From: a virus
IMG/VR virus record: IMGVR_UViG_3300037467_001397
Span: 2,549 to 66,548 of that record
Reading direction: 5' to 3' (one strand)
Length of the DNA stretch: 64,000 nt
The position numbers and the translations under genes were made by a program. The notes below the pieces were generated by a model. The model was given only the letters and a program-made list of their open reading frames with translations, searched no databases and had not been told where the DNA came from. This document shows, piece after piece, positions 11,655-40,750 of the stretch. How positions within the stretch are numbered: the first letter of the stretch is position 1; each line of letters starts with the position of its first letter.

Positions 11655-12203
11655 ATGCTGATCGGCTACGCCCGCACCTCCACCGCCGAGCAAGTCGCCG
11701 GCTTCGAGGCACAGATCAGAGACCTGAAAGCGCTCGGCTGCGAGAAGATCTTTCAGGAACAGGTGTCATCGGTCGCGTCGCGCGCACAGCTCGAGGCGGC
11801 GCTGGACTTCGCCCGGGAAGGTGATGCGCTTGTGGTGACCAAGCTCGACCGCCTTGCGCGATCGATGCGCGATCTGCTCGACATCGTGGCCCGGCTCGAG
11901 CGCAAGGGCGTTGCCCTGCGGATCCTGGCCATGAACCTCGACACGGCCACACCTACGGGCAAGCTGATGCTGAACGTGCTCGGCAGCGTCGCCCAGTTCG
12001 AGCGGGAAATGATGCTCGAGCGCCAGCGCGAAGGCGTCGACAAGGCCAAAGCCGCGGGCAAGTACAAGGGCCGTGCGCCGACCGCGCTCGCCAAGTCCGC
12101 CGCGGTCCTGGCGCTCAAGGCCGAAGGTCTAGGCGCGGCAGAGATCGCGCGGCGCGCCGGCATTTCCCGGCGGAGCGCATACCGGATTTTGGAGGCGCAG
12201 TGA
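11655..12203 (+). CDS. Small serine recombinase (resolvase/invertase family)
   Basis: GYARTST catalytic Ser, VVTKLDRLARS, EREMMLERQREG, C-terminal HTH; 182 aa, no large-serine-integrase domain. Confidence 0.95.
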   Translation: MLIGYARTSTAEQVAGFEAQIRDLKALGCEKIFQEQVSSVASRAQLEAALDFAREGDALVVTKLDRLARSMRDLLDIVARLERKGVALRILAMNLDTATPTGKLMLNVLGSVAQFEREMMLERQREGVDKAKAAGKYKGRAPTALAKSAAVLALKAEGLGAAEIARRAGISRRSAYRILEAQ

Positions 12204-27880: not shown

Positions 27881-28199
27881 CGTCCGCATGCCGCTGATCA
27901 TCTGGGCGACCCGCGCTGAGTACGGCGAGCTGATCTCCGCCCTCGGTGCCGACGACAGCTTTCATGATGTCCTGCGCCGGGTCGTGCTGGCGCATCAGGA
28001 CCGCCTCGCCACGGTGACGTTCACGCTCACCCAGGACGACGCCGAGCGGATCACCGAGTCCCTCGACATCACCGACTTCGCCGAGATCACCGACCTCATC
28101 GAGCAGATGCGCGAGCAGCTCGAGTGGCTGCGGCGCAACCGGACCATCACCGCCACCCGCTTCGCGCTGCCGAATGTCGGCACGTTCTTCGGAGATTGA
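27870..28199 (+). CDS. Hypothetical protein
   Basis: 109 aa; GGAGG RBS; overlaps the upstream gene. Confidence 0.7.
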   Translation: MPGDVRMPLIIWATRAEYGELISALGADDSFHDVLRRVVLAHQDRLATVTFTLTQDDAERITESLDITDFAEITDLIEQMREQLEWLRRNRTITATRFALPNVGTFFGD

Positions 28200-28200
28200 G

Positions 28201-30366
28201 ATGGGAGCGCCGGCTATTCAGACGGCTGCGGCCGACGATCCTTGGGCCTTTCAGACTGACCTCGTTCATCAGATCGAGGCCGCCCTTGGCAACCATGCTT
28301 CTGTCCTCCTCCAGCTCCCCACGGGCGGCGGCAAGACCCACGTCGCCGCCGCGGTGATCAGGCGCTGGAATGCACGCAAGAAGCGGGTCTGGTTCGTCTG
28401 CCACACTCGCGAGCTGATCCAGCAGACCTGCGGCAAACTGAATGCGCTCCGCGTCTCTCACGGGGTCGTGTCGCCGGAGTATCTGCCAGCCTACGAGCGT
28501 CGCGTGCAGGTCTGCTCGGTAGACACCCTGCGCAGCCGGATCGGCAAGCTCGGCGACCTTCTGCAAGATCCCGATCTGATCGTGTGGGACGAGTGCCAGC
28601 ACGTCGCTGCGCCCTCTTGGGCCGCGATCAAGGAGCGATACGCCAAGGCCAGGCACCTGGGCCTCACCGCAACGCCAGAGCGCCTTGACGGCACGGGCCT
28701 CGGGCAGTGGTTCGACCATATGATCTGCGGGCCGACGACCCGCGATCTCATCGCGCGCGGTCGCCTGTCTCGCTACCGCCTCTTCGCGCCCACAATCCCG
28801 GATCTCCGGGGCGTGAAGACCCTGGCCGGCGATTACGCCGCAGCCGACCTGGATGAGCGGATGGGCGGCCCCGTGCTCGTCGGCGATGTGGTCGAGCACT
28901 ACCGCAAGCTGGCGCCCGGCGCGCGAGCGATCGTGTTCGCAGTCAGCGTGAAGCACTCCCAGGCCGTCGTGGAGCGGTTCCGGGGGGCCGGGATCCCGGC
29001 GGCCCATGTCGACGGAAGAACCTCAAAGGATGACCGTGACGCCGCGGTAGCGCGGCTCGCGTCCGGCGAGATCCGGATCTTGTCGAACGTGCGGGTGTTC
29101 ACGGAGGGGTTCGACCTTCCTGCGATCGATGCCGTGATCGTCCTGCGCCCCACGAAATCGCGGGCGCTGTTCCTTCAGATGATCGGCCGGGGCTTGCGCG
29201 GGGCGGAGGGTAAGGCTGCCACGATCGTCCTGGACCATGCGGGTGTGGTGTACGAGCACGGCCTGCCGGACGATGCCTATGAGTGGACGCTGGACGGACA
29301 GGCGGACCGCGGAGGCAGGCGGAATAAGCCGCTCGGCAGCCGCCTGCGGCGCTGCCCGGAGTGCAACGCGGTTCACGAACGGGCGGCAGAGTGCGTCGAG
29401 TGCGGACACGTCTATGCGCCCGGCGAACGGACGATCGACGAGGTCTATGGGGAACTGAGGGAAATCTGGGGACAGATACCGGACGGCTACGTGAATATGT
29501 CAGACTTCGAGAAGATGGTTGGCATTTCTGACAGGTCGTCTTACGGGCTCATTAAGCGTGGATTGCCCGCCGTAAAATGCTCCGGCATCACTATGATCGA
29601 TGTGTCGGAAGGAGTAAAATGGTTTTACAGCTACGCAGAAGACAGCCAGAGGCTGGCGGGACTTAGAAAGCGCCCAGGAGATCATATCGACTACCTCACT
29701 TCATTTGAGTTAGCGCAGCGGCTTGGCATTCCCGCCACCACGACCGCGCAATGGGTCCGCCGCGGCCTGCCGATCGGGGCAAACGGTTACATCCATTTCG
29801 ATAAAGCAAAGCAATGGATTGCTGAGAATACTAGGTTTTCGACGCACCTTGAGTGCGAAGGACTTGAGAAAATATCAGATTTTGCGAAACGAATACGCCG
29901 AACCGTAAGCGCGGTCTATCAATATGCCAAATCGGGCATGCCAACGTTGGACAATAGTTGGGTGCAAGTGGAAGAAGCACTTGATTGGTGCCGAGAAAGG
30001 GGATTGGGGCATACGCCGGACCTGCTCAGCATCACAGCATTTGCAGAGCACATTGGATGTTGTCAACAAACAGTAACAAAGTGGATGGGCGTGGGTCTGC
30101 CCTTCAAAGGCAACAAAAGAATACCGCTGGATGAGGCCCTCGCCTGGGTCTACTCGGACCCCGAGGCTAGACGCCTGGTGCCCCCGCGCGGCAGCGCCGC
30201 CGGGGGATACGAAAAGCAATATGCCTTCGCGAAGCGGGTCGGCAGTCCAGCCTCGACCGTGGCCCACTGGGTTTCGAAGGGTCTACCCGTTGCCGATAAC
30301 GGCTGGGTCCACGTCGAGAGAGGTCTCGCTTGGTACAAAGACTACAAATCCAAGCAGCGCAAGTAG
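28201..30366 (+). CDS. SF2 (DEAD/DEAH-like) helicase with Zn finger and five C-terminal winged-HTH repeats
   Basis: LPTGGGKT, IVWDECQH, GLTATP, VFTEGFDLP, QMIGRGLR; CPEC..CVECG; five K/R-G-L/M-P-centred repeats from about 29488. Confidence 0.9.
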   Translation: MGAPAIQTAAADDPWAFQTDLVHQIEAALGNHASVLLQLPTGGGKTHVAAAVIRRWNARKKRVWFVCHTRELIQQTCGKLNALRVSHGVVSPEYLPAYERRVQVCSVDTLRSRIGKLGDLLQDPDLIVWDECQHVAAPSWAAIKERYAKARHLGLTATPERLDGTGLGQWFDHMICGPTTRDLIARGRLSRYRLFAPTIPDLRGVKTLAGDYAAADLDERMGGPVLVGDVVEHYRKLAPGARAIVFAVSVKHSQAVVERFRGAGIPAAHVDGRTSKDDRDAAVARLASGEIRILSNVRVFTEGFDLPAIDAVIVLRPTKSRALFLQMIGRGLRGAEGKAATIVLDHAGVVYEHGLPDDAYEWTLDGQADRGGRRNKPLGSRLRRCPECNAVHERAAECVECGHVYAPGERTIDEVYGELREIWGQIPDGYVNMSDFEKMVGISDRSSYGLIKRGLPAVKCSGITMIDVSEGVKWFYSYAEDSQRLAGLRKRPGDHIDYLTSFELAQRLGIPATTTAQWVRRGLPIGANGYIHFDKAKQWIAENTRFSTHLECEGLEKISDFAKRIRRTVSAVYQYAKSGMPTLDNSWVQVEEALDWCRERGLGHTPDLLSITAFAEHIGCCQQTVTKWMGVGLPFKGNKRIPLDEALAWVYSDPEARRLVPPRGSAAGGYEKQYAFAKRVGSPASTVAHWVSKGLPVADNGWVHVERGLAWYKDYKSKQRK

Positions 30367-38357: not shown

Positions 38358-38411
38358 GTACGATTTCTGGGATTGCGGACCTTTTGGCAAGTATTCACTA
38401 GGTAGGCGAAG

Positions 38412-38801
38412 ATGACCGATCTTGTTGCCCAAATTCGAGCAAGTCTGCCGATAGGTTGGGAGAAGAATGCGTGGACCGAGCATGAGCTATTGCTTGCAGA
38501 CGCCATCGCCGAAATCGAGCGCCTGCGCGCCGCCGCTGATGGGGCCAGAGTTGGGGCCGGCTGGCAGCCGATTGAGACGGCTCCGAAGGATGGGACGCCG
38601 GTCCTTATTGCGTGGAGCGGCACGCGGTTCGAGGCTGCAAAGGCTCACTACGAGTATGGCAAATGGGGCGGTCTGAGCCCGACATTCGGGTTCGATCCAT
38701 TCGACCGCGCGCCGACCCACTGGATGCCGCTTCCCGATACCTCGTCGCTTGTTGGGGCCCGTGATGGGGCCGGCGAGCGTCAAGCAACGGCGCCGGCCTG
38801 A
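38412..38801 (+). CDS. DUF551-like domain protein (cassette 1, gene A)
   Basis: WQPIETAPKDG...PTHWMPLP. Confidence 0.8.
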   Translation: MTDLVAQIRASLPIGWEKNAWTEHELLLADAIAEIERLRAAADGARVGAGWQPIETAPKDGTPVLIAWSGTRFEAAKAHYEYGKWGGLSPTFGFDPFDRAPTHWMPLPDTSSLVGARDGAGERQATAPA

Positions 38802-38864
38802 TACTTCAAGGGCTTAACAAACATTCCGAAATTCTGGGATTTCCCCCATACCAGGGAGGACAGG

Positions 38865-39056
38865 ATGAGTGCGTCACCACCAAGTCGCGAGGAGATCGCC
38901 CGCATCGCTTACGAGGCGTGGCTGAGCGTCGGAGAGGGCAAGCCTGGATGGGTGAGTTGGGAGGATCTCCCGCTCATCTCGCCCGAAGATTACGCGGCCT
39001 GCCTCGCCATCGCCGACCGCGTTCTTGATCGCTTCAACGATGCTGCGGTCAGTTAG
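38865..39056 (+). CDS. Hypothetical protein (cassette 1, gene B)
   Basis: 63 aa; CAGGGAGGACAGGATG. Confidence 0.7.
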   Translation: MSASPPSREEIARIAYEAWLSVGEGKPGWVSWEDLPLISPEDYAACLAIADRVLDRFNDAAVS

Positions 39057-39107
39057 ACGGAAGCGATCACGGACATTTCGGAAAGTAATTCAGGAGGGCG
39101 GCAAGCA

Positions 39108-39473
39108 ATGGCAGACCTGTTAGAGCACTTGGTCGAGGTCCGGCACGTATTGAAGTCGTCGGGCTTCAGAGCGGCCGGGGATTGCATTACAGACGCCATC
39201 GCCGAAATTGAGCGCCTGCGCAAAGCCGCTGATGGGGTGAATGTTGGGGCGGAAATGGTGCTGGTTCCGCGGGAGCCGACGCCCTGGATGCGGGCTATGG
39301 GCAGCGATGCAAACCTTCAGGCCGATGACGAAGGGCGCATGGCCGCGATCTACCGAGCCATGATAGCCGCAGCACCTCAACCCGCGTCAGAAGTTGGGGT
39401 GAAAGTTGGGGTAAGCGCCTCAACCGAAACCGAAAAGCCCAAGACTTCAGACGCTTTGTGGCTACTTGGGTAA
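39108..39473 (+). CDS. Modular phage protein (cassette 2, gene A)
   Basis: DAIAEIERLR head, VLVPREPT..IYRAMIAAAP core. Confidence 0.75.
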   Translation: MADLLEHLVEVRHVLKSSGFRAAGDCITDAIAEIERLRKAADGVNVGAEMVLVPREPTPWMRAMGSDANLQADDEGRMAAIYRAMIAAAPQPASEVGVKVGVSASTETEKPKTSDALWLLG

Positions 39474-39503
39474 GAAGCGATCTCCGTCAACAGGGAGGAC
39501 AGC

Positions 39504-39710
39504 ATGAAGAAGCGTTTTAGGATCACCTACACCGACCCGGAGACAGGCGAGAGCAAGGTACACGTCGGCGATTATGAGGACACGCCAGGGCACGGGGTTA
39601 TGGCTGACGGGACAACATTCAATGCCGGCACCATCACAGCCCGCCAGTGGGCCGAGGATCACGCCTACGCCTTAGCCGATCAGGGGCCATACCGGGTCGA
39701 GGTCGCATAG
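39504..39710 (+). CDS. Hypothetical protein (cassette 2, gene B)
   Basis: 68 aa; CAGGGAGGACAGCATG. Confidence 0.7.
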   Translation: MKKRFRITYTDPETGESKVHVGDYEDTPGHGVMADGTTFNAGTITARQWAEDHAYALADQGPYRVEVA

Positions 39711-39765
39711 TTCGACGGACGGTACCACGGAAATTTCGGCAAGTAATTCGATGGAGTGCAAAGCA

Positions 39766-40128
39766 ATGGCCGCCGACATCAACGCGCTTGAGAGGTTGTT
39801 CGACAGACACGTTCGGCAAGATATGATGTCCGACGCCATGCATATCCGCCGGGCTATTGCCGAACTGTCCGCCAATCGCGAGGCAGGGGCTGGGGTAAAT
39901 GTTGGGGCGGGATGGCAGCCGATTGAGACGGCGCCGAAGGCCGGGGTGCGTATCCTTGCTTGGAGTTACAACGACGGCGATTTCATAGGCGCCTGCATCG
40001 ACGGCACTTGGCTTGATGACCACGACGCCCCCTGCGCGCCGACCCATTGGCAGCCGCTGCCCGATCTGCCGTCGAGTGTTGGGGTAAAAGTTGGGGTAAG
40101 CGCCCCGTCAGTAGAGCCCGCCGCCTGA
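39766..40128 (+). CDS. DUF551-like domain protein (cassette 3, gene A)
   Basis: WQPIETAPKAG...PTHWQPLP; GCAATGGC start context as in cassette 2. Confidence 0.8.
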   Translation: MAADINALERLFDRHVRQDMMSDAMHIRRAIAELSANREAGAGVNVGAGWQPIETAPKAGVRILAWSYNDGDFIGACIDGTWLDDHDAPCAPTHWQPLPDLPSSVGVKVGVSAPSVEPAA

Positions 40129-40189
40129 TACTTCAGGCACTTAACGAGCACTTTGAGACGGACGGGGCCTCCGAAATACCAGGGAAAGG

Positions 40190-40384
40190 GTGATGGAAAA
40201 CATGCCAGAACAAGCCACGGGCGAGCCTTCAACCGTGGATGAGCGGGAGGCGCTACGTCATCGCAGGCGCACAGAATTTCGGCCGCTCGCGCTATCGCCA
40301 CGCGAGGTCGAAGTGCTGGACGAGATGCTGAGCATGGCCGAGGCGGCGATTGCCGGCGCCGGGCTCAAGGATCTGCCGAAGTAG
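40190..40384 (+). CDS. Hypothetical protein (cassette 3, gene B)
   Basis: 64 aa after ATACCAGGGA. Confidence 0.55.
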   Translation: MMENMPEQATGEPSTVDEREALRHRRRTEFRPLALSPREVEVLDEMLSMAEAAIAGAGLKDLPK

Positions 40385-40440
40385 GGAAGCGGGGCCGCCA
40401 GTATGGCGGACAGGGGAGAACCCATCCCAGGGAGGGAACG

Positions 40441-40614
40441 ATGCAAACGGTTTGTGTGAACTGCAAACGCCCGATCCACGGGCGCCCATACAACAGCGAG
40501 AGCTTTGTCGGAGCTTGGTGCTCGGCTGAGTGCCAGGAGGCATTCGACGACATGCGGGAGGAGGCTTACGCCCTCAAGAAAGGCGACCTGCCGGCCGAGG
40601 ATGAGGCAGACTGA
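40441..40614 (+). CDS. Small zinc-finger-like protein
   Basis: Manual translation MQTVCVNC...WCSAEC; GGGAGG RBS. Confidence 0.6.
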   Translation: MQTVCVNCKRPIHGRPYNSESFVGAWCSAECQEAFDDMREEAYALKKGDLPAEDEAD

Positions 40615-40750
40615 AAATGGCGGACAGGGGTACCGCCATTGCCGATAACCAGGCCCCAAATCCGGAGCGGCATCCGTGCTGAGCCCGAACTGAAGTCAAA
40701 AAAAATCCCGCTGGCGATTAGGCCATGCGGGATTGGTGATGGAGAGATGG

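Follow-up and report, generated by a model that had tools for sequence, protein, structure and literature searches.

How do three neighbouring phage genes come to be built from interchangeable parts that meet at the same short, G-rich DNA motif? The question is raised by positions 38358-40440 of a stretch of 64,000 nucleotides (the window, to which positions refer unless a locus is named), which corresponds to bases 2549-66548 of the 71,155-bp IMG/VR phage record IMGVR_UViG_3300037467_001397. An earlier sequence-only reading of the window had described three tandem two-gene cassettes here, whose first genes (hereafter A1, A2 and A3) would exchange head, core and tail modules at a 19-bp motif. 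We find that the breakpoints of these mosaic genes and of their relatives coincide with the motif, that its synonymous positions are constrained, and that the same element lies in the attachment (att) arms of integrase-bearing bacterial islands. The best explanation, which we hold with moderate confidence, combines a putative protein-binding site set in linker codons with homology-driven exchange at conserved patches.

Mosaic genes joined at the motif

The motif consists of two 12-nt direct-repeat units, each G-N-T-G-G-G-G followed by 5 nt. Searched as TGGGG-N7-TGGGG, it gave six exact matches in the window (at 38540, 38753, 39233, 39395, 39891 and 40080), all on the + strand, vs 0.18 expected from shuffles, and none of 100 shuffles reached six. 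No further copy was found in the whole 71,155-bp record, which gives the phage twelve half-sites in all. The matches lie in frame, exactly two in each A gene as the earlier reading had stated, on either side of the central domain, and encode the peptide (V/D/A)-G-x-x-(V/D)-G. Every copy is a direct repeat and has neither an inverted nor a palindromic core, and the two motifs of a gene are 150-327 nt apart (median 201). The genes and their motif copies are as follows:

38412-38801, + strand: gene A1, an open reading frame (ORF) of 129 aa with a helical head, motif, DUF551-like core, motif and the tail GERQATAPA
39108-39473, + strand: gene A2, an ORF of 121 aa with a non-DUF551 core, of a type also present in gene a of relative G003
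39766-40128, + strand: gene A3, 120 aa from the ATG at 39766, with its own head type, a DUF551-like core and the tail SAPSVEPAA
38538-38556, + strand: motif A1-m1, GAT GGG GCC AGA GTT GGG G, peptide DGARVG
38751-38769, + strand: motif A1-m2, peptide VGARDG
39231-39249, + strand: motif A2-m1, a match to the pattern
39393-39411, + strand: motif A2-m2, matching a bacterial island arm site at 29 of 31 nt, flanks included
39889-39907, + strand: motif A3-m1, the sole copy with four G-tracts in reach (39886-39911)
40078-40096, + strand: motif A3-m2, sharing 22 identical nt with the arm sites of the islands at L293 and L354

The start of A3 was placed at 39766 by alignment of the leaders. All pairwise sharings listed earlier among the three genes were found again by alignment: A2 has its head end in common with A1 (38494-38557 and 39187-39250, 86% over 64 nt) and its tail start in common with A3 (39393-39419 and 40078-40104, 96%), and the core starts of A1 and A3 are alike (38526-38606 and 39877-39957, 75%).

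A further 12 genes with this architecture came to light in eight additional phage contigs through searches by protein and by pattern, which brings the family to 15 genes: one in L010 (via protein P0002), two in G001, one in G002, three in G003, two in G009, and one each in G010, L393 and L394. Their order is constant, with a helical head typically ending in ..AIAEIxxLRAA, a motif, a core, a second motif and a short Ala/Pro/Ser-rich tail. At least nine mutually unrelated cores occur, and the DUF551-like type is present in seven genes; family cores share about 35-45% amino-acid identity across nine contigs. In a Pfam scan DUF551 (PF04448) was matched by five of 13 members (best E 4.5e-6), the scores of A1 (20.8 bits, E=7e-4) and A3 (15.9 bits) lying below the cut-off of 22 and A2 showing no DUF551. 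A profile made from the five DUF551-type genes collected 34,367 proteins at E up to 0.001. An AlphaFold2 (AF2) model of A1, indicative only at a mean predicted local distance difference test (pLDDT) score of 59, shows helices at residues 2-11 and 23-41 followed by a beta core, and places both motif peptides in coil (pLDDT below 50) between helical head and beta core. A1, A2 and A3 are paralogues in a small early-gene family that resembles the Ea22 protein of phage lambda in build, its short tail being disordered.

We then compared the 105 gene pairs at both junctions over 36 nt on each side of the motif, taking a pair as discordant when it was at least 70% identical on one side and at most 45% on the other. 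There were 31 discordant pairs vs only four alike on both sides, in a gene set that is small and whose pairs do not represent independent events. The likeness ended 0-12 nt from the motif edge in every one of the 31, mostly within 0-3 nt. Head, core and tail types are freely recombined in the resulting module matrix: A1 and the G010 gene, for instance, are identical at 73 of 75 nt in the tail and post-stop region with unrelated cores and heads, and the G002 gene has its head, not its core or tail, in common with gene a of G003. An extra junction lies about 35-45 nt upstream of the first motif, giving a shared patch of about 55-60 nt made up of the conserved head end and the motif. The supposition that modules are reshuffled with crossovers at the motif is thus borne out, breakpoints in homologues being far from random in position relative to it.

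Such sharp ends would suit a motif that serves as the crossover or initiation signal of a dedicated shuffling system, be it through a site-specific recombinase, integrase-assisted exchange or template switching via paired G-rich repeats. Invariant half-sites around a variable 5-nt spacer also fit recognition better than mere homology, a resolvase-type small serine recombinase with an HTH_7 domain is encoded at 11655-12203, and two GGGG tracts per copy make a bimolecular quadruplex conceivable from two copies. Yet this recombinase, the only one found in the phage, lies 27 kb from the motif genes, and such enzymes use dyad-symmetric sites, whereas the motif is directly repeated throughout. Neither a tyrosine integrase nor its arm-binding domain was found in the 71-kb genome (PF00589 and PF13356 searched), and no reverse transcriptase (RVT_1) matched. 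Hallmarks of diversity-generating retroelements, shufflons and integrons were likewise not found, there being no RVT_1, no inverted sites and no tyrosine recombinase. Four G-tracts in reach, the pattern of an intramolecular G-quadruplex, occur at one copy out of six, so that the secondary structure suggested earlier for the G runs is no general property of the motif. Contigs of two soil runs on the region gave no joint interpretable as a motif-to-motif swap, in data whose unitigs break at repeats, whose joints have sides of 20-33 nt probably derived from related phages, and in which rare recombinants are not resolvable; for the source run we count this against a dedicated system. The same holds for the position of the bacterial copies, which are accessory sites 76 and 134 nt from the crossover core (see below). 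The site-directed diversification system proposed in the sequence-only reading was hence not upheld, given direct repeats only, no adjacent recombinase and no tyrosine integrase, reverse transcriptase, RecT or Erf in the phage, and we regard a dedicated system of any kind as distinctly unlikely.

Constraint on the motif as DNA

Codons were counted in the 30 motif copies of the 15 genes. At the first and fifth codons we found GTT 49 times, GAT 9 times and GCT twice, so that the third base is T in 60 of 60 cases and the second base varies to give V, D or A. At the second and sixth codons the third base is G in 59 of 60 (GGG in 54). Both favoured codons are minority codons elsewhere: outside the motif in the same genes GGG makes up 23% of Gly and GTT 27% of Val codons, and in the long ORFs of the phage 15% and 9%. 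Conservation at synonymous positions thus exceeds what the peptide needs. In agreement with this, the seven departures from the consensus in the 30 copies all change the amino acid and none is synonymous (four changes of GGG to AGG, one of GGG to GTG, and two of G to A in the first base of the next codon); one further half-site is entirely lost in L394. In the three genes found by protein homology alone (those of L010, L393 and L394) the motif is perfect at five of six positions and a half-site is kept at the sixth, which speaks against motif-based ascertainment as the source of the constraint. Gene a of G003 (L147, 3880-4233) carries a TGA in the 5-nt spacer of its second motif and has kept the second half-site beyond this stop. 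On the evidence of these codon patterns, the motif is selected as DNA and not as peptide.

A feature of the peptide or of its translation would account for the motif always being in one frame and in predicted disordered linkers: the (V/D)-G-x-x-(V/D)-G linker itself could matter, or the GTT and GGG codons, rare in this phage, or a Shine-Dalgarno-like GGGG could slow ribosomes. Against this, the third base is constant even though the first residue is V, D or A, and one phage copy straddles a stop codon. The explanation is largely refuted by the bacterial copies described below, where the same 22-31 nt are non-coding and contain stops in that frame, and we consider it highly improbable.

The same element in island attachment arms

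Bacterial genomes, one per species, were scanned with a T-rich variant of the motif. The matches include many Hyphomicrobiales (Methylobacterium, Bosea, Ancylobacter, Aquabacter, Labrys, Hyphomicrobium, Starkeya, Microvirga and Methylocella). These copies are non-coding, with stop codons in the frame used by the phage, and their likeness to the phage copies extends past the two heptamers, over 22-31 nt. Among 44 high-GC matches, 20 have the motif 5-25 nt upstream of a tyrosine-integrase gene and 14 have it about 45-60 nt past the 3′ end of a tRNA-Ser, tRNA-Ala or tRNA-Arg. In Ancylobacter aquaticus, A. tetraedralis and a Bosea sp. it stands at both ends of single islands (15.7, 25.5 and 40 kb). 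In both Ancylobacter islands a second copy of the final 14 nt of tRNA-Ala precedes the motif nearer the integrase (134 nt upstream in A. aquaticus), and from this core duplication we could reconstruct the layout of attP: motif, 76 nt, core, 134 nt, motif and integrase, with the motifs in direct orientation 210 nt apart. Lying 76 and 134 nt from the crossover core, the motif is thus an accessory site in the islands. The A. aquaticus integrase has the domains Arm-DNA-bind_3, Phage_int_M and Phage_integrase.

Integrases were also gathered by protein similarity alone, and the motif was then looked for at their gene starts with at most one mismatch allowed. It was present in 27 of the 29 integrases at least 60% identical. 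The gene starts of more distant integrases bear different direct repeats there, again phased at 12 nt, such as TTGTGGAT, ATTTGTGGACTG, TTGTTAGCAT and GGGGGAAC. The repeat thus co-varies with the integrase clade, as arm-type sites do. This co-variation, and the direct repeats on both att arms, make the island motif a putative, and probable, arm-type site of an Arm-DNA-bind_3 tyrosine integrase clade. A by-product is thus the probable arm site of a clade widespread in Hyphomicrobiales, whose related clades retain the 12-bp phasing but differ in sequence.

Three observations on these loci are added. The A. aquaticus tRNA-Ala island (L392, G004:C1 214800-230900, 15.7 kb) encodes, besides the integrase and an amidase, a DnaB-like helicase, DUF1376 and an HTH_91 winged-helix protein; virion or structural genes were not recognised in it, and it is possibly a phage satellite. 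In Methylobacterium sp. P31 (L384, G006:C4 3113105-3113332) two motifs, one of them the GCC-rich variant seen in A1, lie 209 nt from each other immediately before an integrase gene, and a string resembling a tRNA-Ser end stands between them; this is an attP-like chromosomal junction, perhaps the boundary of tandem islands. Alternative 12-nt-phased repeats accompany integrases 28-55% identical to that of Ancylobacter in L419, L426, L427, L429, L433-L436, L445, L446, L448 and L454, where they sit about 100 nt before position 1501 of each locus, just upstream of the gene; the set is material for studying how arm-site specificity evolves. An Rfam scan of the bacterial loci returned tRNAs and one int-alpA RNA only. 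Generalising through the arm repeat of another integrase clade (TGTGGGCTG...) was abandoned, as the scan matched unrelated conserved coding sequences.

Identity with the island arm repeats makes it probable that the phage motif too is a protein-binding, arm-type site, a prediction that agrees with the earlier remark that a 12-bp periodicity would suit such a site. What sets the phage copies apart from the bacterial ones is that neither a cognate integrase nor an att core accompanies them: matches to tRNA 3′ ends between the paired motifs were 10-12 nt long and no better than chance, and the window contains no tRNA genes.

As to the phage itself, the record has direct terminal repeats and 65% G+C and encodes myovirus-type tail genes (sheath, Baseplate_J, GPD hub) and a D5/DUF5906 primase-helicase. 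Given that no integrase was found, it may persist as a plasmid. Among public runs the best holder of its DNA is a soil metagenome. The closest relative of its tail sheath in bacterial assemblies (75% identity) lies on a contig binned as Methylobacterium, and the next ones (about 60%) come mainly from Alsobacter, Rhizobium and Labrys; a host in Hyphomicrobiales is hence likely, if unproven.

A host-recombination signal was considered for the same order of bacteria. GTTGGGG is G-rich and strictly oriented, every copy lies on one strand, and it resembles the Chi sequence of E. coli (GCTGGTGG), as a regulatory sequence of the host RecBCD or AddAB would. In three island-bearing Hyphomicrobiales genomes, though, GTTGGGGT occurs 100, 91 and 55 times vs 88, 105 and 67 for the reversed control. 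Being neither over-represented nor strand-skewed, it has next to no chance of being Chi-like, and we take this role as refuted.

A further reading sees in the motif the relic of an ancestral attP or of a horizontally acquired fragment, kept alike by gene conversion with no present role in binding. The family is multi-copy and clearly recombining, the phage has no cognate integrase, and some relatives carry decaying copies, all of which this would explain. The ea22 gene of lambda, moreover, belongs to the exo-xis region, beside xis, int and attP. Its location between exo and xis is documented (PMC10834534). Conversion would, however, homogenise the spacers, and the six window copies have six different 5-nt spacers between identical half-sites, which makes such homogenisation unlikely. 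Synonymous sites are moreover invariant across nine contigs whose cores are so divergent, and mismatches fall at non-synonymous, not synonymous, positions. We judge a relic to be unlikely.

In the explanation that we prefer, the motif would be placed in linker codons because coding sequence tolerates a binding site best there. Its binder would be the arm domain of the island integrase or, less likely, a winged-helix protein of the phage. One candidate among phage-encoded proteins is the superfamily 2 (SF2) helicase at 28174-30366 (ResIII and Helicase_C), whose C-terminus carries, at 29488-30366, tandem helix-turn-helix repeats of the HTH_17/MerR (excisionase) type. The motif and 10-40 nt of adjoining conserved sequence would be kept identical in every member, so that paralogues and co-infecting relatives would come to share short patches of homology exactly at domain borders. 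The mosaics would then arise there by template switching or by homologous recombination of the ordinary kind. We observe the mosaic build, the place of the breakpoints, the synonymous constraint, and the identity of the motif with island arm repeats that co-vary with the integrase clade; binding to the phage copies, homology-driven exchange and the reason for which the sites are kept are inferred.

Several observations weigh against this explanation. Arm-type sites are not crossover sites, so that an arm site alone gives no site-specific recombination, and neither RecT nor Erf, as a catalyst of short-homology exchange, was found in the phage. Two 70-kb relatives of the phage also have no tyrosine integrase, and the temperate relatives G001-G003 have integrases of a different type with no motif close by. 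Most relatives were found by the motif search itself, and in G009 three of four motif copies show decay with one or two mismatches. The motif is absent from the contig with the 75% identical tail sheath (L577, CAXDNE010000010.1, 57 kb), whose genome bin, labelled Methylobacterium, gave only chance-like matches; the element and its gene family are therefore accessory to this phage lineage.

The spacing of the phage motifs resembles the 209-210 nt between attP arms, which leads to an idea that is possible, if rather unlikely. The phage would carry core-less pseudo-attP units, hidden in the linker codons of an expendable gene family and made of two pairs of arm sites some 150-330 nt apart, which would capture the integrases of resident tRNA-integrated islands, maybe phage satellites, whose excision would be blocked, timed or exploited. 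Alternatively, integrase bound at these sites would bring family members together and the exchange of domains would be protein-assisted. If true, this would be a DNA-decoy or hijack interaction of a phage with foreign integrases, encoded in coding sequence. Apart from this idea, the identity of the phage and island sites suggests that phages may harbour sites bound by integrases of other mobile elements.

Surroundings of the genes and comparison with known systems

The elements around the A genes are the following:

39056-39107, also 38366-38411 and 39714-39765, + strand: non-coding leader 5′ of the A genes, conserved in seven phage loci
38865-39056, + strand: small gene B1, 63 aa, unrelated to B2 and B3 and outside the shuffled unit
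39504-39710, + strand: small gene B2, 68 aa, no family
40193-40384, + strand: small gene B3, 63 aa, no family
38797-38864, with a copy at 40124-40192, + strand: conserved element past the stop codon, containing CTTAAC and a ribosome-binding context common to both copies, moving with the tail module

The three tandem two-gene cassettes described earlier hold as regards the A genes and their leaders, which do repeat (39051-39112 and 39709-39770 match at 76%). The second genes (38865, 39504 and 40193) are mutually unrelated, therefore what is repeated is an A gene with its non-coding leader only. Similarly, the ribosome-binding contexts noted for the second genes do match (at 38845, 39484 and 40421), but the third copy serves a 57-aa ORF at 40441 and not the gene at 40193. 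A leader of about 40 nt, GACGGA.G.GATCACGGA.ATTTCGGCAAGTA.T, stands before every A gene and recurs in L010 (5950-6000) and L393 (4940-5000). Scans for sigma-70 promoters and terminators stayed at chance level, with no sigma-70-like promoter in the leader. Beyond A3, a perfect 14-nt direct repeat, ATGGCGGACAGGGG, is found at 40403-40416 and 40617-40630, both copies intergenic and each in a small hairpin. Over twelve bases the repeat is the reverse complement of a Hyphomicrobiales tRNA-Ser(CGA) 3′ end, a match at chance level (E 0.25), and the string occurs again in L010.

Some searches for relatives went astray or yielded little. A blastn comparison of the region with GenBank phages gave just two short DUF551 matches, and a word-indexed protein search one useful relative. 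Scanning viral contigs with the generic GTTGGGG-N5-GTTGGGG matched mostly unrelated, low-complexity VGVxVGV repeat proteins and was given up. A CC-type pattern added two relatives and mainly matched an unrelated phage family of tandem SV[GRW][AD] repeats, seen in L199 (446-1474, 342 aa) and also in L159, L172, L195, L212, L218 and L227; these proteins contain long tandem SV[G/R/W][A/D] tetrapeptide arrays whose 12-nt coding unit includes GTTGGGGCC.

The nearest described counterparts are Ea22 of lambda and the Ea22 variants of Stx phages, in which a common N-terminus and coiled coil precede mosaic C-terminal domains, DUF551 among them (PMC10834534). The family described here is similarly made of small early proteins with a helical head, a mobile segment and an exchangeable core, mosaic between phages and with DUF551 among the variants, as alignments and the low-confidence AF2 model indicate. 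Unlike Ea22, its members are shorter and have a second junction and a common tail. Neither the three window genes nor the 13 members scanned matched Ead_Ea22 (PF13935 / IPR025153) up to an E of 1, and since this signature is undetectable we regard the family as a functional analogue of Ea22, not a member of its family. To our knowledge, no nucleotide motif has been described at ea22 junctions.

In T4-type phages, repeated intergenic cassettes, the PeSL elements, mediate gene shuffling in hyperplastic regions. The present locus resembles them in that small genes are separated by repeated conserved leaders, which recur in related phages with different cargo. It differs in that the motif is intragenic and marks the borders of domains, not of genes.

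On the integrase side, P4-like tyrosine integrases use arm-type (P) sites: the Mesorhizobium ICE ICEMlSym R7A has five IntS arm sites, with the experimentally determined consensus TGKTGGTATC, in a 283-bp attP (PMC11963761). The island repeats described above are likewise direct, stand on both sides of the att core beside an arm-domain integrase and begin with the same TGTTGG. The island copy nearest the integrase overlaps the 5′ end of the gene, where IntS autoregulates. In contrast to IntS sites, the phage copies, putative as binding sites, are inside coding sequence, enclose no att core and lack a cognate integrase in the genome.

Phage mosaicism is usually explained by illegitimate recombination followed by selection, or by exchange at motifs constrained by the protein. 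Of the second kind are the His boxes of T-even gp37/gp38 and the collagen-like repeats of Streptococcus thermophilus phage antireceptors, conserved motifs that bracket a swapped variable domain. Here too, breakpoints coincide with a short conserved sequence bracketing a variable segment, and exchange swaps the domain. Whereas those motifs are conserved for the protein and belong to adhesin or antireceptor genes, the genes here are small early genes, and the junction element is constrained as DNA, its synonymous positions being more conserved than the amino acid. It offers a testable case in which a predicted binding site in linker codons would fix where domains exchange. Motif-mediated mosaicism is thus known in phages, and a DNA-constrained junction element is a new form of it.

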